A DNA stretch of 64,000 bases from Promethearchaeota archaeon (GTDB taxonomy: Archaea; Asgardarchaeota; Lokiarchaeia; Sigyniarchaeales; SOKP01). Position numbers and translations under genes: made by a program. The notes under the pieces are model-generated. The model worked only from the letters and a program-made list of their open reading frames with translations, was not told the origin of the DNA and ran no database searches. The stretch covers positions 1 through 64,000 of the forward strand of contig JAEOTR010000017.1 in assembly GCA_016839705.1 (NCBI GenBank), given 5' to 3'. Each line of letters begins with the position of its first letter. Within the stretch, counting starts at the first letter, position 1. Shown in pieces: positions 18,921-28,596 of this stretch.

Positions 18921-19838
18921 ATGTTTCATGAGAAATTTCGCGAGGGAATCATAAGCGCCAAGCAGTTTGATAAGGATGATATTGAGTATATTTTAAGTAA
19001 GAGTAGAGAAATGATTAAAAAAAAAAACACAGATCTTCTTAACGGAAAAATCCTTGCTACCTTGTTTTTTGAACCTTCAACCCGCACTCGTCTTAGTTTT
19101 GAATCTGCTATGTATAGATTAGGTGGAAATGTAATCGGATTTCATTCTGGAGATGTTTCTTCTATCAAAAAGGGAGAAAGTATTGCAGATACAATTCGAA
19201 CTGTAGAAAATTATAGTGATTGTATTGTTATTAGACATTCGCTTGAAGGTGCTGCGAGAATGGCATCAAAATTTGCGAAAGTACCAATTATAAACGCAGG
19301 ATCTGGGAGCGGGGAACATCCTACTCAAGCTCTACTAGATTTACTAACGATAACTCAAGAGCTCGGTTCATTAGATGGTTTGAATATAGGATTAATGGGT
19401 GATCTTAAGTATGGAAGAACAGTTCATTCACTCTCAGTACTACTATCTAATTTTAATGTTAATGCTTATTTCATAAGCCCCGTAGAGTTGCAGATGAGAA
19501 ATCGAGATAAAGATTTTTTACGACAACGACAAATGAACTATAAAGAAATTACAAACTTTAGAAAGATTTTAAATACCTTAGATGTTCTTTATATGACTCG
19601 AATTCAGAAAGAAAGATTTGTTGATTTAGAAGAATATGAGAAGATTAAAAACTTCTATATTTTCAGAAAAGAAGATCTTGAAGATACTAAGGAAAATTTT
19701 CGGTTATTACACCCTTTACCCCGTGTTAATGAAATCTCACCAGATGTAGATAGTTCAAATAAATCGGTTTATTTTAAACAAACTTTTTATGGAATTCCAA
19801 TGCGAAAAGCCATTTTAGCAGAAATGATGCATGATTAG
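18921..19838 (+). CDS. pyrB: Aspartate carbamoyltransferase catalytic subunit
   Basis: FFEPSTRTRLSF, HPTQ, GDLKYGRTVHSL, TRIQKER, HPLPR. Confidence 0.98.
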   Translation: MFHEKFREGIISAKQFDKDDIEYILSKSREMIKKKNTDLLNGKILATLFFEPSTRTRLSFESAMYRLGGNVIGFHSGDVSSIKKGESIADTIRTVENYSDCIVIRHSLEGAARMASKFAKVPIINAGSGSGEHPTQALLDLLTITQELGSLDGLNIGLMGDLKYGRTVHSLSVLLSNFNVNAYFISPVELQMRNRDKDFLRQRQMNYKEITNFRKILNTLDVLYMTRIQKERFVDLEEYEKIKNFYIFRKEDLEDTKENFRLLHPLPRVNEISPDVDSSNKSVYFKQTFYGIPMRKAILAEMMHD

Positions 19839-19852
19839 ATTAAAAACCTTCA

Positions 19853-21808
19853 CTATTTCTTATTATTTCCGAATGTGAAAGCATTTATCTTTGAATCAAA
19901 TAATAATTTTAATTGTTTTTTTTCATTATTTTCATCGAAATGAAATTTTTGATTGAAAATAGATCCCCCATCAATTAAATTCTCAAATTTTCTGAAATAG
20001 TTAACCTTTTTTGTCAATGATAGTAGAGAGTTCTCTCTAATGATTCTGGAGGAATATCTATTTAAACCTTCCTCCCTACTTTTGATTTCACTATGCCATG
20101 AATCCTTTAGATAGTTGTCATCATGTGGTTGATTTAATATATATCTTTCATTTTCCTCTTCATTCTGTTCTTCAATAATTCTTCGCATTCCTGTAAAAAT
20201 TTCTAGGGCAAATTTTAAACTACTTTCTGTTCTGTCAAGTTCTATTCCACAATGATTTATAACAGCTTCATTTAAACCAAAAAAGCTGATCCCTTTTATT
20301 GATTCCTGAATTAAATTCTCTCTATGGCTTTTAAAAATTTCCGAGCTTAAAGTATCCCACTTCTTATTAAATTTTAATTTCTTTGTCACTAGATCTTTTT
20401 TATAATTGAATAGTTCAAAAACTAGATTTAGTTTATCTTGTAATAGTTCAAAAAATAAACCATCATTTTGATTTGCTTCCATTGAAATCATGTGCAAATT
20501 AATTAGAATCTTATCTAAGATGATCTCGTTGGACATTGGATTGTCTATCTTAATCAGTGTAGAATTCAGCAAATTTGAACATGAGTTATTGTAAATAATT
20601 ATATTTTGTCTTAGAGAATTCGATAGATGTTCAAATATTAAATTATTTTGTGAATAAAAATTAGCAAAGTCTGAGAAACCAAATTCTAATAATAGTCCCT
20701 TATTATTTGTATAATTGTTATTCAAAGAATCTAAAAATAATTTAGCAATGTGATTCACATTTTGAGATTTAAATTCTAAAGTTAAATGATGTTGATTATC
20801 TTGGAAATTTTCATTATATCTGTGCATTTGAGATGTCAGTAGGTTTATCAGATGAGTATTATTTTCTAGTCCATTGTATTTGAATAGAAAATTATTGTCA
20901 AAATCGCCCAATACTATATCTTCAGTAATATATTGCTTAATTTGATATAAAAAATCAAAAAGATTTAAAATTATATTAATAGAATCTTTCCTTTCAGTAA
21001 ATTGGTTTGATGAATTTGAATAATTATTGAATATGTATTCTAGTACGGTATCAGTTTTTATGTAGATGCTCAAGGGTCTTAAACTCCAATAGTTTAAATG
21101 AAGGAGGGCTATTTCTCCAGATAAATACAAATCGGCTAAATTCTTTGGAAGTAGATTCAATAATAAAAACTGCTCAGAAACATCTGAGCCTAATTTCTTG
21201 ATAAATTTATCTGGTGTAAATTCCTTTAAATTGAATAATTTAGATGCTTCATAAGGTGGTGTACCTAATCGAGTAAGCTTGTGCCTTACTTCCTCTAAAC
21301 CATTTTCTAATAAAATCGCATTTATATACTCACGCATCAATGGAGTAGTTAAATATTCAATATTTGTCCTAGCTAAGCGTTCTTCCACTTCATGAGCAAT
21401 TTTTCTAGCTAAAAACCGCTCCATTCTACCCTCAGTTATAAGATAATCTTCAATCTTGCTTGAATCAAAACTCTCTTTAGAATATTTTGAGGTTCTAATC
21501 ACTCGCGTTTTAGATTTATCTAGAAGGATTTGTTCGATTGATACAATATTCTCTAAAATTCGTTTCCCTAATTTAGTAATATAATAACCATATTCTGTTG
21601 AATTAATCAAATCGCATTTTTTTAATTCATTTAAATGAAATGAGAAATTAGGTGAAGAAAAATCACCTTCCAAAACATCTCTCTGAAGTTTTGAAAAGGA
21701 TAAAGGATTTTGAGAGTGGTTCAGCTTTTTCAAAATATCTATCCTTATCTTTTGACCTAATGTTTTTAATTGTTTTCCTAATAAATCCTTATTTTTGTCG
21801 GAATTCAC
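19853..21808 (-). CDS. ArsR-like wHTH + ATP-cone + degenerate class III ribonucleotide reductase (NrdD)-like domain
   Basis: RIDILKKL..LSFSKL..FSFHLNELKK..YYITKLG; VIRTS..FDSSKI..TTPLMREYINAILLE; LYLSGEI, ISFFGLNEAV, IDGGSI; no RxxGY. Confidence 0.8.
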   Translation of the reverse strand: MNSDKNKDLLGKQLKTLGQKIRIDILKKLNHSQNPLSFSKLQRDVLEGDFSSPNFSFHLNELKKCDLINSTEYGYYITKLGKRILENIVSIEQILLDKSKTRVIRTSKYSKESFDSSKIEDYLITEGRMERFLARKIAHEVEERLARTNIEYLTTPLMREYINAILLENGLEEVRHKLTRLGTPPYEASKLFNLKEFTPDKFIKKLGSDVSEQFLLLNLLPKNLADLYLSGEIALLHLNYWSLRPLSIYIKTDTVLEYIFNNYSNSSNQFTERKDSINIILNLFDFLYQIKQYITEDIVLGDFDNNFLFKYNGLENNTHLINLLTSQMHRYNENFQDNQHHLTLEFKSQNVNHIAKLFLDSLNNNYTNNKGLLLEFGFSDFANFYSQNNLIFEHLSNSLRQNIIIYNNSCSNLLNSTLIKIDNPMSNEIILDKILINLHMISMEANQNDGLFFELLQDKLNLVFELFNYKKDLVTKKLKFNKKWDTLSSEIFKSHRENLIQESIKGISFFGLNEAVINHCGIELDRTESSLKFALEIFTGMRRIIEEQNEEENERYILNQPHDDNYLKDSWHSEIKSREEGLNRYSSRIIRENSLLSLTKKVNYFRKFENLIDGGSIFNQKFHFDENNEKKQLKLLFDSKINAFTFGNNKK

Positions 21809-22205
21809 TTTACTTATAGAATTTAAACTAATTCTTTAAATCTGTTTATCTAAATTATAAGTTTATTAATTATATAAAAATTTGGAAATTCTTGAGTAAG
21901 TTGGTGGGAATTAGATAATATGTGGGTGATATAAGGAATAATTCTATAGAAAATAGAATAAATTCATAATCTCTTTATTATACTTAAAATCCTAAATTAC
22001 TAGATTTTTTGCTATATTATAAAATGAAATGGGAAATTTTTGAAGTAAATGATCTTCAATATTCACATTCTATGGAAGAGAATAATTCATTTCTGAAAAT
22101 CTTGCAAGGAAATTTAAGATTTTCAAAAAGTAGATAAATTCTATAAATTTATTTAAATCAAAATTTATTAATTAAATATAATTAGTAAAAAAATTATTAT
22201 ATCTC

Positions 22206-22829
22206 TTATCTAGCTGAAACAGCTATTCTCTCTATTTCATCTTTTCGTTTTACAGCCCTAGACTCTTGGCTATTCTTCGCAGCTAGAATTAGTTCTTGAG
22301 CCAAATTTTCTTCAAATAGATTTTCGTTCGCATGAGATTTTGAACCGATTGCTTGAGCTAAATACTTCAGGGCAAGGTCAACTCGTCGCTGGGGCGCGAT
22401 ATCCACTGCTGACGCGTAACTGATACCGCCCATCGCAATTTTGGTGGTTTCTTCTCGTGGTGCTGTATTAACAATTCCATCAATTAAAATCTGGATTGGA
22501 TTTTCTCCTGTCATAAGCTCAATTAAAATAAAAGCATTTTTTATACTCCTCAGTAATTTCCCTTTTTTACCAGAATTGTATGAGCTTTTATGACCCTTAA
22601 TACGGCTTCCGATAAACCCAGGAGAGAGTAATCTATTAGCAAATCGTTCAATAACAGATACTTTAGAGGATTTCCAAAATCTTCTATGTTCATGTCTCCC
22701 CGCAGAATGAGGAACTATAATAGGTTTTAAGTTAATATAATTTTGTAGTGTTGGATCTCTAACCTCGATGTTTTCAAAAGACCATTTATTAAATAGCTCT
22801 ACATCTTTCTTAGTTTTACTCATAATCAT
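22206..22829 (-). CDS. rps7: 30S ribosomal protein S7
   Basis: LFNKWS, PHSAGRH, APREETT, VDIAPQRRVD, KDEIERIA. Confidence 0.98.
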   Translation of the reverse strand: MIMSKTKKDVELFNKWSFENIEVRDPTLQNYINLKPIIVPHSAGRHEHRRFWKSSKVSVIERFANRLLSPGFIGSRIKGHKSSYNSGKKGKLLRSIKNAFILIELMTGENPIQILIDGIVNTAPREETTKIAMGGISYASAVDIAPQRRVDLALKYLAQAIGSKSHANENLFEENLAQELILAAKNSQESRAVKRKDEIERIAVSAR

Positions 22830-22840
22830 AACCTCCCCAT

Positions 22841-23278
22841 TTATCGCAACGGCTTTTCCTTTTTTCCGCTAAGAAGGGCTTCTAAACTCACCCCATTTAC
22901 CTTCACTACCCTGTAACGGACTCCTGGAAGATCTCCAATACTTCTGCCTTTTGCTCCACCGATCCCTTCTACTATAACCCGATCATGCTCTTCTATGAAG
23001 TTTAGCGCACCATCACCAGGCAAGAATGCTGTTACACCTTTCCCATTTTTTTTAAGTTGAATTCTTACACATTTTCGAATAGCTGAATTAGGTTGTTTAC
23101 TTTCTCGGCCAACCTTTTGAAGCACTATCCCAAGGGCTTGACAACTCCCTTCTAAAGGATCTACTTTCTGTTTTAGCTTGAGTATTCTTCTTTTATATTT
23201 AGTTTTTGACCATCGATATTTTTTCCGGTTAGTTTGAAGCTTTCTTGCTGCGTAAAGTCCTTTTGGCACTTTAATCAC
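22841..23278 (-). CDS. rps12: 30S ribosomal protein S12
   Basis: [23 protein letters not shown]. Confidence 0.98.
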
Positions 23279-23439
23279 TCAATTTTTATTTATGATAATG
23301 TGAAAAAATACATGATAGAACTTAAAATTTTGGATACCACTCTATTTCTTAAAAACTAATATGCCATTATTCAGTTGGAAATAGGGTAAACATAATTTAA
23401 TAAATAGATAGGACCTCTTAAAGTAAAAAGAGAGCAATT

Positions 23440-23916
23440 TTAAATGTTTTTAGTATTTATAATTACGTTATCGACTTCGAAATATCTTAACACTAATTCC
23501 TTAATTTTTCTTATCATTGAACCTTCTTTACCAATAGCTTTTCCACGATCTTGAGGTCGTACAGTTATAATTACAGTTTTTTTTAAATTTCTACTTTCCT
23601 TTACTTCAATATCTTGTACAACAATAGAATTTTTGGTAGTTTGTAAGATATTTTGGATAAAGCGATCAAGGTTTTCTGAAAAAGCGATTACATCAATCTT
23701 TTTATTTAGTTTTGATTTTAAATCTTTGACGTGTTCACCTGCTTTTCCAATAGCTTTTCCAACGTCTTCTTCTTTTACTAAAAAAATAACTACTTCAGAA
23801 TTATACTCTTGATTCCTAAATATCAGGCAATCTTTAATAATGGCTCCTGAGATATTATTAAACAATGAAATAAGTTCCATGGATTCCCTATCAATCTTAA
23901 TATTTTTTTTTATCAT
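23440..23916 (-). CDS. nusA: Archaeal NusA (two KH domains)
   Basis: GKAIGKAG and GKAIGKEG; between L30e and S12. Confidence 0.95.
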   Translation of the reverse strand: MIKKNIKIDRESMELISLFNNISGAIIKDCLIFRNQEYNSEVVIFLVKEEDVGKAIGKAGEHVKDLKSKLNKKIDVIAFSENLDRFIQNILQTTKNSIVVQDIEVKESRNLKKTVIITVRPQDRGKAIGKEGSMIRKIKELVLRYFEVDNVIINTKNI

Positions 23917-23946
23917 CGAGATATCATTTATTATGTGTAATTAAAC

Positions 23947-24318
23947 TCAATGAGTTCTTAAAGTCAATAGATCTGAATCACCCTCTTGAACGACACCAAT
24001 AATAGAAATCATATAAGGTTTTGCACAAGCTAGGCCAAGATCCCAACTGGACCCTTTATATCTATAAATATAGGTTTTATCTTTCATGAGGGAAATATAG
24101 TAGTTTAGTTGGGTCTCTAATTCAGATGGACAATTATTTGCTATAATAATCATCTTAAAAGATTCATTTCGCAAATGTTTTAACACCTGCTTCTTACCAT
24201 ATATGAATTTTCCTGTATTCATTGCCACTTTCAAGTTAGTATCAATATCAAACTCTTTCTTTTTCTTACGAGACAGATCAAGTTTTTCTGCAACGTTTTT
24301 GCTTTTATTCTTTGCCAT
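23947..24318 (-). CDS. rpl30e: 50S ribosomal protein L30e
   Basis: TGKFIYG, IIANNCP, LGLACAKPY, GDSDL. Confidence 0.96.
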   Translation of the reverse strand: MAKNKSKNVAEKLDLSRKKKKEFDIDTNLKVAMNTGKFIYGKKQVLKHLRNESFKMIIIANNCPSELETQLNYYISLMKDKTYIYRYKGSSWDLGLACAKPYMISIIGVVQEGDSDLLTLRTH

Positions 24319-24414
24319 GGTATTTTCAATTTGTGTCTGTATAATTAAGTAATAATAATATTATAATTTTTAAGTTTTTTTCGGTGTTTTTTATTTATAA
24401 TTTCAAAAAGAGTT

Positions 24415-25611
24415 TTATTTCTTGTTTTGTTTCAATATTTCCAAATTTGCATCAAGATCAAACATGACGTTCACACGCCCAGTACCGATCGGGGATATCT
24501 GTCCCACAATAACATTCTCAGGAATACCCAAAAGGCGTTCTTCTTCCCCATAAAGCCCTGCATCAAGTAGTTGGTTAACTGTTACCTCGAAAGCAGCTCT
24601 GGCAAAAACACTGGATTTTGACCCAGAGATTCCATGTCGTCCAATAGATTGAATTGAGCCTGAATAGCACATTAGGTCTGATAAAATAAGTAAATGTCTC
24701 AAATCAACATCTAATCCTTGTTGTTCAAGAACTTTTTGAGATTCCAGTATTATTGTTTGACGTGCAGCTTCAATACCATATAATTTTTCTATTTCATGAA
24801 TATGATTTGAAACAGATCTAGTATCGTCTACACCATCAATTTGAGTTACACCTTGCAAATTGGTACCTTCAGTTTTAATTACCCATTCTTTACCATCATC
24901 AGAGGGTGTTAATAGTCCTCTTTTTACACCTCTGATACCCTTCACTACTTTTTTCAGAATTTTTTCTCTTAATTTTTGTAAGCTCTGCAAATCTTCTATT
25001 CCTGGATCAATAATTATAGAATTTCCTTCACGTTTTATTGTCCCTTTCTTCTTATAACGTTTTAAAATTTCAGGGATATCATTAATATCAATTCCTTTTC
25101 TTTCGCAAATTTCTGGGATCAAATTAACAACAATCTGCCAATTTACAAAATCTAAGTCTACATCAGAGATTATCTGTTCTATCCGAATTTGTTCTATTCG
25201 GTTATGAACTTCTATGGCTTTTTCCTCAGTTTCATTATATTCGTCAATTAGATATACTTCCATTGCTGGTGTCGATGGAAATCGTCTAGCATCAACAATT
25301 TCGATTAGTCGTGGCAACCCTTGAGTAACTGAAAATTCTTCTACTCCTGCGTAATGAAATGTCTTCAATGTCATTTGAGTTCCTGGTTCACCAATCGATT
25401 GTGCTGCAACTGTACCCACTGGTTCTGAAGTTTCTACAAGTGCATTATTATAATTAATAAAAATTTTATTTAGTAGATACTCTAGTTGTTCTTTTTCGAG
25501 TTCCTCATCTTTTATTTTATCTCGAATTTTTTCAATCAAATCTTCAGGAATCCCATCTTTCTTCATTATCTCTAATTGCTGTTCTAAAAATTGTGAAGTT
25601 ATTTTTGCCAT
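24415..25611 (-). CDS. rpoA2: RNA polymerase subunit A'' (Rpo1C)
   Basis: [42 protein letters not shown]. Confidence 0.98.
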
Positions 25612-25644
25612 TTCCTATCTCTCAGGTTATTTTATTTTATTTAA

Positions 25645-28596
25645 TTATCCTAATTTTTCTTTTTTCCAATCTATATAATTCTTAGTTTCTTTTCCTCTCC
25701 AAATAGCTTTTTTTCCGGAGTCTTCCTCAAATTGCTTTATTAAATCATCTTCATTAATATCTGATTCTTCTTTTTTTGTAATAGTTTCTTTTTTAGGCTT
25801 TTTCTTGGTAGGAGCTACTTTTTTGGGTTTTGCTTCAGATGGCTTCTCTACTTTGGGAGTAGACTTTTTGGTACTTGACACTACTTTTAGTTCTTCATGA
25901 ATTTTGTCTAAATTCATTGCTTTCGCTTTTAGCAATAAAACATCTAAATTTACTGCTGCACCATGATCAGTGTGCATTGCATCAATGCCATCATCGCCAA
26001 ATCTAAATTGAATAATATTTTTATCGGAATTCCTAACTGTGCCGTCATTTTCTACAACCATATCCTGCAAAGCATTTACTAATCTTCGCTGCATGTATCC
26101 ACTTTGAGAAGTTCTCACTGCTGTATCTACAAGCCCTTCTCTTCCGCCCATAGCATGAAAAAAGAATTCCACCGGCTTTAATCCATTCCTAAAAGATGAA
26201 GATACAAAACCTCTGGATTTTGGTGAAAGATCATCAACTTTAAAATGCGGTAAAGTTCTACTACTATAACCTCTATTAATTCTTTCACCCCTAATCACTT
26301 GTTGACCTACCGTTGCTGACATTTGTCCTAAATTTAAGATATTCCCCCTTGCACCAGATTTAGTCATGATAACGGAATGTGCTTCATCTCCAATGAAGTC
26401 AGCTGCAGATTCCTCTGCCTTCATACGTGCCTCTGTTAATACTTGTCGAATTCTTAATTCTAAAGTTTCTCTCATTGATCGTCCAGGAGCTCTTTTAAGA
26501 ACAGTAATATCATTCTTATGAAAAGCCTTAATCAGTTTTTCAGACTCATCATTTGCTTCTTCTAAAATATCTTGAATTATTTGATAAGCATGACCATGTA
26601 CATAAACTTCATCTAATCCCATTGTTATTCCATTTTTTCTAATGACATATAATAACATTTTGGTAGAACTATCCAAAAATTGCCTACCACGAGCATTTCC
26701 ATGATCTTTAATAATTCGTGCAAGAATACTGTTCGGTTGCATAGCACCATAAGAATTTTCATCTAATGTTCCAGTTATCAACTTTCCATTTCTAATTACG
26801 ACATATGCATCATAAGAACAATTTTCTTCTTTACACACATCACATTTTTCACAAAATTTTGATTTTACTTTTATGTTTAAATCGTCTGGGAACAAACTGC
26901 TAAATATCGCTTTTCCAGAATATAACGGTTCTGGTTCAGTGACTATTGGAGTTAAATCATCTAAACTGAAATCAGGATTATTATTGAATATGTCTCCCGT
27001 ATACAATAACTTTAATGTATCCTTTTTATTAAAAAGAGAATTTTTGCTCGTAAATTGATAAACACTTGAAATAAAATCTTGAATTCCCCCAAGAATTGGA
27101 CCTCCAAACCGGGGAGATAATATATGATTCTGTACTTTAAGAAGCAATTCTGCTTCAGTTCGAGCTTCCTCACTTTGAGGTACATGTAAATTCATTTCAT
27201 CCCCGTCAAAATCAGCATTGTATGGAGGGCATACAGTTAAATTCAATCTAAACGTCCTCCCATACATAATTTTTACTTCGTGTGCCATAATAGACATCCT
27301 GTGTAAGGAAGGCTGACGATTAAATAATACCAAATCTCCCTCATTTAAATGGCGTTCGACGGTGAATCCTGGCGCTAACATATCAGCAATGATTTTTCGA
27401 TTTTTAACATAGCGGAGATCAATTCTTCTACGATCATTTCGTATGATATAATTGGCTCCAGGGTGGTGAAAGGGGCCATTTAAGACCATTTGCTTCATCT
27501 CTTCAATATTCCAATCATTAACATTAGTCGGTATGGTTAAGATCTTCGCTATTTCTATAGGTACACCTACATCGTTAATGCTTATATACGGATTTGGTGA
27601 AATTACACTTCTCGCAGAAAAATCGACTCTTTTACCGCTTAAATTACTTCTAAACCGGCCTTCTTTTCCTTTTAATCTTTGAGTTAATGTTCTTAGTGCT
27701 CTTCCTGAACGATGTCTTGCTGGTGGGATACCAGAAACTTGATTATCAAAATATGTAGTAATATGATATTGAAGTAATTCCCAAAGATCTTCTACAATTA
27801 GATGAGGTGCGCCAGCATCAATATTTTCTCTTAACCTTTGATTAATTCTTATAACATCTACTAATTTATGAGTTAAATCATCTTCTGACCTAATACCACT
27901 GTCCAATGTAATTGAAGGTCGTGCACATACGGGAGGAATAGGTAATACAGTAAATACCACCCATTCAAGCCTTGCATTCTCTGGTGAAATACCTAAGATT
28001 CTCAAATCAATATCGGACATTTTTTTTAATCGTTCTAAAATTTCAATAGGTGTTATTCTACGAGACCCTTTCCCTTCTTCCTCTTCATAAAAAGTGGTTG
28101 GTTTTTCAATAATAATTTTCTTTTTCTTACCACCACAATATGGACAATTTTTATTCTTCCGAGCACGCTTGAATACAATTTTAGCAGCATCCTCATCACC
28201 CTCAAAAAATATTTTTCTGTGTTTCACCTGTTCTTGCCTAAATTGCTCCTTTTCCTCTTCTGTGAGCATTAATCGAGAACATTCAGGACATATAGATCTT
28301 AGAACTTTAAGTACTTTTTTCGCATACCCTACATGAATTACAGGCCGGGCTAACTCAATATGGCCAAAGTGACCCATACAATTACTAACTAAATTACCAC
28401 ATGTCTGACAGCGCTGTCCTGGTTCAATAGTACCAAGTCTTTGATCCATAAGCCCACTCGGAATCGGGAGACCATCCTCATCATATGTATCTGCTGTGAT
28501 AATACGAGCAGCAGACATTTTTCTTATCTCATCTGGGCTTAAGAGCCCAAATTTGATTTTTTCTATCATTTTGGTTCTTGAAAAAGTATAACTCAT
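25645..28596 (-). CDS. rpoA1: RNA polymerase subunit A' (Rpo1N) with C-terminal extension
   Basis: GHFGHIEL, GKRVDFSAR, NADFDGDEMN, GGREGLVDTAVRT. Confidence 0.99.
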   Translation of the reverse strand: MSYTFSRTKMIEKIKFGLLSPDEIRKMSAARIITADTYDEDGLPIPSGLMDQRLGTIEPGQRCQTCGNLVSNCMGHFGHIELARPVIHVGYAKKVLKVLRSICPECSRLMLTEEEKEQFRQEQVKHRKIFFEGDEDAAKIVFKRARKNKNCPYCGGKKKKIIIEKPTTFYEEEEGKGSRRITPIEILERLKKMSDIDLRILGISPENARLEWVVFTVLPIPPVCARPSITLDSGIRSEDDLTHKLVDVIRINQRLRENIDAGAPHLIVEDLWELLQYHITTYFDNQVSGIPPARHRSGRALRTLTQRLKGKEGRFRSNLSGKRVDFSARSVISPNPYISINDVGVPIEIAKILTIPTNVNDWNIEEMKQMVLNGPFHHPGANYIIRNDRRRIDLRYVKNRKIIADMLAPGFTVERHLNEGDLVLFNRQPSLHRMSIMAHEVKIMYGRTFRLNLTVCPPYNADFDGDEMNLHVPQSEEARTEAELLLKVQNHILSPRFGGPILGGIQDFISSVYQFTSKNSLFNKKDTLKLLYTGDIFNNNPDFSLDDLTPIVTEPEPLYSGKAIFSSLFPDDLNIKVKSKFCEKCDVCKEENCSYDAYVVIRNGKLITGTLDENSYGAMQPNSILARIIKDHGNARGRQFLDSSTKMLLYVIRKNGITMGLDEVYVHGHAYQIIQDILEEANDESEKLIKAFHKNDITVLKRAPGRSMRETLELRIRQVLTEARMKAEESAADFIGDEAHSVIMTKSGARGNILNLGQMSATVGQQVIRGERINRGYSSRTLPHFKVDDLSPKSRGFVSSSFRNGLKPVEFFFHAMGGREGLVDTAVRTSQSGYMQRRLVNALQDMVVENDGTVRNSDKNIIQFRFGDDGIDAMHTDHGAAVNLDVLLLKAKAMNLDKIHEELKVVSSTKKSTPKVEKPSEAKPKKVAPTKKKPKKETITKKEESDINEDDLIKQFEEDSGKKAIWRGKETKNYIDWKKEKLG

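Follow-up and report, generated by a model that had tools for sequence, protein, structure and literature searches.

A candidate ATP/dATP-sensing transcription factor built from a dead class III ribonucleotide reductase in Lokiarchaeia and other archaea

Introduction

There is a gene in the window (the whole 64,000-nucleotide stretch of Promethearchaeota DNA analysed here) that appears to join a DNA-binding domain to the body of an anaerobic ribonucleotide reductase (RNR). The question raised by this locus is whether such a protein is an enzyme, a partner of an enzyme, or a regulator. A preliminary description, made from the letters of the DNA, had proposed a pseudoenzyme that couples nucleotide binding to DNA binding, either as an archaeal analogue of the bacterial repressor NrdR or as an RNR modulator. 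The comparisons reported here favor the first of these. The fusion protein is probably an ATP/dATP-sensing transcription factor for RNR genes and an archaeal analogue of NrdR, and we give this reading, which is drawn from sequence comparison, a probability of about 0.65.

Domain Architecture of the Fusion Protein

The fusion gene begins with a GTG start codon and ends at a clean, true stop. It is composed of the following features.

19853..21808, minus strand: fusion gene (winged helix, ATP-cone and dead NrdD barrel), 651 aa
21518..21781, minus strand: ArsR-like winged helix (DUF7347), aa 10-97, from Pfam and alignments
21260..21508, minus strand: ATP-cone, aa 101-183, from Pfam and alignment
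19865..21259, minus strand: catalytically dead class III RNR barrel, aa 184-648, from alignment and structure matches

All three domains had been named in the preliminary description, and all three were recovered. The N-terminus passed a single winged-helix model in Pfam, DUF7347, at aa 14-88 (E 4.5e-11). It resembles the ArsR/SmtB regulators in that ArsR-type models match it weakly, but these matches stay below their cut-offs (NF033788, 24.8 bits vs 55; HTH_20, 19.9 vs 27). A phmmer search of the winged helix against PDB sequences returned no match. The ATP-cone was matched by Pfam at aa 104-174 with an E of 3.4e-4, slightly below the cut-off. The NRDD model was matched at aa 426-637 (E 3e-14). 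The AlphaFold model of the protein has a mean pLDDT of 82, and its top 36 PDB matches are all class III RNR structures (best E 1.5e-18). Pfam and the structure matches both indicate that the ten-stranded RNR barrel is present. The N-terminal zinc ribbon of NrdR is absent from the fusion protein, and the winged helix stands in its place.

Loss of Catalytic Elements

The fusion protein was aligned to intact Asgard NrdD. In the HxHD...C segment, both histidines and the cysteine are gone; HxHD is the substrate-phosphate motif of class III RNRs (PMC11226230). There is no beta-A cysteine in the barrel. PAES has become PHDD and YTNS has become YSSR, so that the eroded motifs listed in the preliminary description can all be seen in the alignment. 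The finger loop, which reads CC in intact Loki NrdD, is deleted.

20549..20581, minus strand: site of the deleted finger loop (catalytic thiyl Cys), about aa 410-420, from alignment

The chain then ends ahead of the CxxC pair and the RxxGY loop. The zinc ribbon (two CxxC) is absent in the Loki members, and it is kept by the longer members of other lineages. One cysteine, C520, is invariant among the Loki members; its position is non-catalytic, and other lineages have not conserved it. Every catalytic element is lost, which bears out the earlier proposal of a pseudoenzyme, and on the evidence of the alignment the fusion protein is catalytically dead.

A six-frame search of the assembly found no stand-alone class III glycyl domain; such a domain supplied in trans, with the catalytic cysteines preserved, was what the preliminary description had said would refute its reading. 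The PF01228 matches are other glycyl-radical enzymes or fragments. A glycyl domain acting in trans would also be unable to rescue the fusion protein, because the finger-loop cysteine is gone.

Distribution and Origin of the Family

Homologues of the fusion protein number 485, and the best 120 of these span 635-671 aa. Their names place the source genome in Promethearchaeota/Lokiarchaeia. All 60 C-termini that were compared end at the same place. Since lengths and C-termini agree, the chain end is not an artefact, and the early stop that had been reported is shared by these homologues. Conservation across Asgard genomes, which the preliminary description had raised as a check, was also found: the gene was found in 28 of the 29 genomes of its own Loki family and in six other Asgard families. 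Several further Asgard families gave no match, family f7 among them (0 of 30 genomes). Beyond Asgard archaea, the family is present in Bathyarchaeia, Methanomethylicia, and Nitrososphaeria, and its ESM Atlas clusters are from Thermoproteota and Nanobdellota. Members outside Loki are mostly longer and retain the zinc ribbon. The RxxGY glycyl motif is present in 0 of 78 deep orthologues and 0 of 81 cluster representatives, and no orthologue was found to be an intact RNR, as simple decay had been expected to give. Decay was rejected on the number of homologues, the uniform length of the best 120 and the missing glycyl motif in all members examined.

A tree was built on the cone and barrel columns only, with the winged helix left out. 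The 54 rows that have a winged helix group together as a single clade (SH-aLRT 100, from a quick search with long branches and no bootstrap), and the subgroups largely track taxonomy. The sequences thus point to one old origin for the fusion family.

Sequence Conservation

Among Loki orthologues, the mean pairwise identity of the winged helix is 0.64. Four of its residues, R22, K27, H58, and L62, are invariant across lineages, and the recognition helix hardly varies between phyla outside Loki. The identity of the ATP-cone is 0.78, compared with 0.81 in the cone of the active Loki NrdD. In the NrdR of Streptomyces coelicolor, the cone residues that bind nucleotide include V48, K50, E56, and K62 (PMC9110341). 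With the register set by hand, their counterparts in the fusion cone are V103, R105, E112, and K118. R105 is invariant among the cone rows, and E112 and K118 are each present in at least 90% of them. The position of NrdR R51 is a threonine in the fusion cone, as it is in the cones of active archaeal NrdD.

The barrel is kept unevenly. At aa 201-248 the identity is 0.83, and the helices that follow are eroded.

20804..21064, minus strand: former specificity-site and dimer helices, aa 249-335, eroded, from identity comparison

These helices have an identity of 0.37 among Loki orthologues vs 0.86 in the active Loki NrdD. The dimer helices of the fusion protein are only 0.10 identical to those of Loki NrdD. 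The cone is about as conserved as in the active enzyme and the specificity helices are not; therefore, we infer that the cone still binds adenine nucleotides and that the specificity site was lost in the Loki members. When aa 5-250 were modelled as a pair of chains with ATP, the predicted complex scored 0.32 (mark 0.42).

Gene Neighborhood

The gene lies convergent with pyrB, as had been described.

18921..19838, plus strand: pyrB, convergent with the fusion gene across a 14-nt gap

In 42 of 101 related loci, pyrB is downstream on the opposite strand. Many Bathyarchaeia have the fusion gene, a glutaredoxin gene (grx) and an intact nrdD in a row, often with a convergent pyrB next, and 30 of the 101 loci contain an nrdD. 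In one Nitrososphaerota record, the order is fusion gene, class II nrdJ, convergent pyrB, and pyrI. The pairing with pyrB is probably a relic of an older order of regulator, grx, RNR, and pyrB-pyrI; the convergent pair in the window would follow if the Loki RNR gene moved away and pyrB stayed. The CCGACAAAA box described below is absent from 16 of 16 Loki pyrB promoters, and pyrB was rejected as a target. The link with pyrB looks like inherited gene order and not regulation. In other Thermoproteota (L367-L373), shorter members of 525-602 aa are head-to-head with a carbamoyltransferase-family gene (pyrB or argF). On its other side in the window, the fusion gene stands right behind an rpoA'-rpoA''-L30e-nusA-S12-S7 cluster (22206-28596), an order common to most Loki orthologues.

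The linkage to RNR genes does not depend on the class of RNR. In one Nitrososphaeria group, 20 loci have the fusion gene immediately 5' of class II nrdJ; L356 shows this order as well, and in L354 the two genes are convergent. The nrdJ-linked Nitrososphaeria genomes that were tested all carry amoA (12 of 12), and none has another NRDD match (0 of 12). No RNR gene adjoins the fusion gene in Loki, Methanomethylicia, and some other groups, a point against the regulatory reading. Since the ammonia oxidizers tested keep the fusion gene without NrdD, it does not need an NrdD partner, and the alternative of an RNR modulator is weakened. The gene tracks an RNR gene of either class, with or without NrdD, and this argues more strongly than any other finding for a protein that works at promoters and not on the enzyme itself. 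The NrdR-like role gains independent support from a family that is conserved and uniformly dead, that adjoins RNR genes of both classes and that persists where NrdD is missing. A conserved palindrome is also present in the adjoining nrdJ promoters of the ammonia oxidizers.

Candidate Operators

In ammonia oxidizers, the nrdJ promoters beside the fusion gene contain a conserved palindrome, GGTGTMAA-N5-TTGA, on the 5' side of the TATA box. It passes in 18 of 21 promoters in a leave-one-out test against shuffled sequences, a count that close kin inflate. It was found in 0 of 20 RNR promoters of genomes without the fusion gene, but these genomes belong to other lineages and are more GC-rich, so the two counts do not form an independent contrast. 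There are 0-2 copies per genome, of which 6 of 13 are at nrdJ. Its place 5' of the TATA box would fit activation.

The matrix trained on these ammonia-oxidizer promoters picked out 3 of 30 promoters in Bathyarchaeia, 0 of 20 in Loki, and 0 of 5 in other Asgard genomes with the fusion gene. One universal operator was rejected on these failures. A TGTYAA element in Bathyarchaeia resembles the ammonia-oxidizer palindrome by eye, which is only suggestive. Between the fusion gene and grx-nrdD in Bathyarchaeia (L102-L156), there is also a near-palindrome, TACAGAATTTTATA, immediately 5' of the BRE/TATA. It was found in three of five Bathyarchaeia genomes searched, with 1-2 copies each, and a TGTYAATTT element is ahead of it.

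The Loki gene has a different set of elements.

21793..21801, minus strand: CCGACAAAA box in codons 3-6 of the fusion gene, from sequence comparison
21869..21883, minus strand: putative BRE/TATA of the fusion gene, conserved in Loki orthologues, read from the sequence
21914..21931, minus strand: conserved upstream element starting TATCACC, from orthologue comparison

The TATCACC element is in 12 of 16 Loki orthologues, 0 of 20 nrdD leaders, and 1 of 30 nrdJ leaders. The CCGACAAAA box is in 15 of 16 Loki orthologues of the fusion gene and 18 of 20 nrdD leaders. With one variable base (CCGAYAAAA), it is also in 17 of 30 Loki nrdJ leaders, and its background is 0.2-0.6% of other promoters. Inside the fusion gene it is spelled with rare synonymous codons (10-15% of their kind), and in genus g3 it is shifted upstream, onto the other strand. 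Its genome sites are intergenic in 8 of 17 cases vs 6.8% expected (p 6e-6). CCGACAAAA is a real DNA element, and the fusion gene shares this regulatory box with the Loki RNR genes.

We doubt that the fusion protein itself reads the box. Another factor probably does, because the box also occurs in Asgard genomes without the fusion gene. In G026, where the fusion gene was not found, the box is intergenic in 10 of 11 cases after removal of 13 insertion-element copies, and one is before an RNR large-subunit gene. In G009, where it was likewise not found, 17 of 30 are intergenic, including one at nrdD. CCGACAAAA was not accepted as a proven operator on this account.

Genes for histone, Cdc6, and Rad51-family proteins neighbor the box, each recurring in two genomes. 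Intergenic copies are seen across several Asgard families (G000 C81:82604, C73:82614, C34:16217, C75:18180; L171-L233; L268-L321). It stands ahead of nrdD, nrdJ and cdc6/orc1, of genes for histones, a Rad51-family protein and a ParB-domain protein, of an operon that includes an SMC-like gene, and of several small regulators. Small genes of 117-122 aa are 3' of the box in families f1 and f5 (L199:1034-1390, L226:980-1348, L284:1529-1894, L287:1518-1871). They are alike by eye, and the three that were scanned had no Pfam match. They are candidates for an autoregulated reader of the box or a conserved target. The insertion-element-like repeats of G026 (L270-L286, 13 copies) carry the box near one end, 37 nt before a probable transposase of 232 aa, and this element may borrow a host regulator.

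Proposed Mechanism and Alternatives

The fusion protein may have arisen from an ancient archaeal duplicate of a class III RNR that lost catalysis and gained an N-terminal winged helix, giving a one-component transcription factor. Its ATP-cone would bind ATP or dATP. The dead barrel would serve as an oligomerization scaffold, holding two winged helices as a pair; in the Loki form it would no longer read dNTPs at the specificity site. In the NrdD of Prevotella copri, the two cones meet close to the dimer axis (PMC11226230); a similar geometry would bring two N-terminal winged helices together. A switch from ATP to dATP would then alter operator binding. The predicted targets are RNR promoters, whose operator would vary between lineages and is putatively GGTGTMAA-N5-TTGA upstream of nrdJ in ammonia oxidizers. 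The 460-aa barrel that is retained is more than a cone-plus-DNA-binding design needs, and this counts against the reading as a transcription factor.

Other explanations can be weighed against this. A nucleotide-sensing factor could serve a wider replication regulon, in which the Loki form reads CCGACAAAA and controls its own gene along with nrdD, nrdJ, cdc6/orc1, histone genes, and a RadA paralogue. The enrichment of the box in the three sets of leaders, its hold within coding sequence, its shift in genus g3, its intergenic excess, and its recurring neighbors would fit, and a GACAA core is common to the box and the Thermoproteota palindromes. However, the box is just as intergenic in the two genomes where the fusion gene was not found, and it is a single asymmetric site with no palindrome, so we consider this unlikely. 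In a broader form, a dNTP-sensing factor built from an RNR, possibly before the split of Asgard and TACK archaea, would in Loki either belong to or read a CCGACAAAA winged-helix regulon of RNR, histone, and Cdc6/Orc1 genes. This has a slightly better, still small, chance of being correct. If true, the regulon would be an archaeal counterpart of the eukaryotic S-phase gene program. The sequence TTTTGTCGG presumably resembles an E2F site. Somewhat less likely again is a non-transcriptional sensor or scaffold anchored to DNA, e.g., one that tethers RNR or replication proteins to the chromosome, with a winged helix that contacts DNA but does not regulate promoters. In its favor, conservation across phyla extends to the barrel and, outside Loki, to the zinc ribbon, beyond the needs of a simple regulator, and the matrix test gave no operator common to all lineages. 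The fixed recognition helix and the palindrome at the linked nrdJ point to promoter binding instead, and a fixed protein partner is unlikely because the linked RNR switches class.

It is improbable that the fusion protein is a dead subunit that pairs with active NrdD in mixed dimers to tune the enzyme. Many Bathyarchaeia do have the fusion gene directly 5' of nrdD, and NrdD works as a dimer whose subunits show cross-talk (PMC11226230). Against this, the dimer helices have diverged almost entirely from those of Loki NrdD, and the gene is well conserved in the 12 ammonia oxidizers, whose lack of NrdD refutes mixed dimers as the only role. The least credible explanation by far is an RNR that is still active with a glycyl-radical domain from a separate gene, or a decaying pseudogene. 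Databases do label homologues as anaerobic RNR, and no intact nrdD was found in the assembly. A gap in the assembly is the most likely reason for this, though, and an intact class II nrdJ is present; with the finger-loop cysteine gone, no stand-alone class III glycyl domain in six frames, and 485 homologues of which the best 120 are of even length, an active or decaying RNR is refuted by the sequence.

Comparison with Known Regulators

NrdR, the bacterial RNR repressor, also joins an ATP-cone to a DNA-binding domain, and it controls RNR genes of several classes and its own gene, with palindromic boxes in RNR promoters (PMC9110341); a similar role is proposed for the fusion protein, for which such boxes were seen in the ammonia oxidizers. 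NrdR differs in being a small zinc ribbon and cone, whereas the fusion protein has a winged helix, an archaeal NrdD-type cone, and a whole dead barrel. The two are of independent origin. NrdR is rare in archaea (PMC9110341), and no NrdR-type cone was found in the assembly. Class III NrdD (Thermotoga maritima 4COI, P. copri 8P23; PMC11226230) shares the barrel fold and the position of the cone and is the direct ancestor, but the fusion protein is without the HxHD, NxN flap, finger-loop cysteine, and glycyl loop, and has an eroded specificity site and an added winged helix. NrtR, with a Nudix-like effector domain (PMC2330246), and the archaeal RbkR (PMC5397151) are winged-helix regulators that use the fold of a pathway enzyme as sensor. 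The fusion protein likewise joins a winged helix to the enzyme fold of a pathway whose genes adjoin it. RbkR operators also vary between archaeal lineages, but RbkR retains kinase activity (PMC5397151), and neither RbkR nor NrtR is built on an RNR fold or an ATP-cone.

No published description of the fusion family was found in the literature searched, which included RNR phylogeny and database papers. If the proposed role is correct, an ATP-cone transcription factor would have been invented a second time and independently, here from RNR itself. Hundreds of records named 'anaerobic ribonucleoside-triphosphate reductase', some in aerobic ammonia oxidizers, are not enzymes, and their annotation can be corrected. 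The family spans Asgard archaea and Thermoproteota, including ammonia oxidizers, where the predicted operator makes the reading testable.

Other RNR Genes and Dead NrdD Copies

The class II nrdJ of the assembly is intact. The preliminary description had reported no nrdG nearby, and this holds for the whole assembly, in which no NrdG was above the family cut-off. A separate intact nrdD, which it had suggested looking for, was not found in the assembly either, but genomes of the same genus have nrdD. The neighbor genes of nrdD are missing from the assembly as well; for these two reasons the absence is most likely an assembly gap, and true loss from the source genome was rejected. Two Loki genomes that are 98-99% complete (G019 and G127) have the fusion gene and NrdJ, with NrdD not detected.

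A second dead NrdD of 601 aa, without the winged helix, is present in the same genome as the fusion gene at G000:C70:4763-6568 (L007:4763-6568:+), with orthologues in L056-L067. It is nested within Loki NrdD in the tree, and its ATP-cone is 0.77 identical to that of the active enzyme. It is without the finger-loop cysteine and the C-terminal domain, and the CCGACAAAA box is in 0 of 12. It is a better candidate than the fusion gene for a modulator that binds NrdD. More NrdD-like proteins without the glycyl motif and winged helix were seen (L026:2862-5054, P0198, P0212, P0218, P0222, P0226, P0228, P0232, P0235, P0239, P0242, and P0249). They are spread over several separate clades, so dead NrdD copies arose repeatedly in archaea. 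In genus g6, two nrdD orthologues (L033:2735-4609, L068:623-2497) keep the first cysteine and the box and have lost the finger loop and C-terminal domain. Their genomes are 98-99% complete, with no other intact nrdD found; in G106, a class II RNR match was not found either. Stand-alone ATP-cone frames of 144-172 aa are present in genus g2 (G127:C188:13546, G088:C22:802, G030:C14:6789, and G019:C272:13498).
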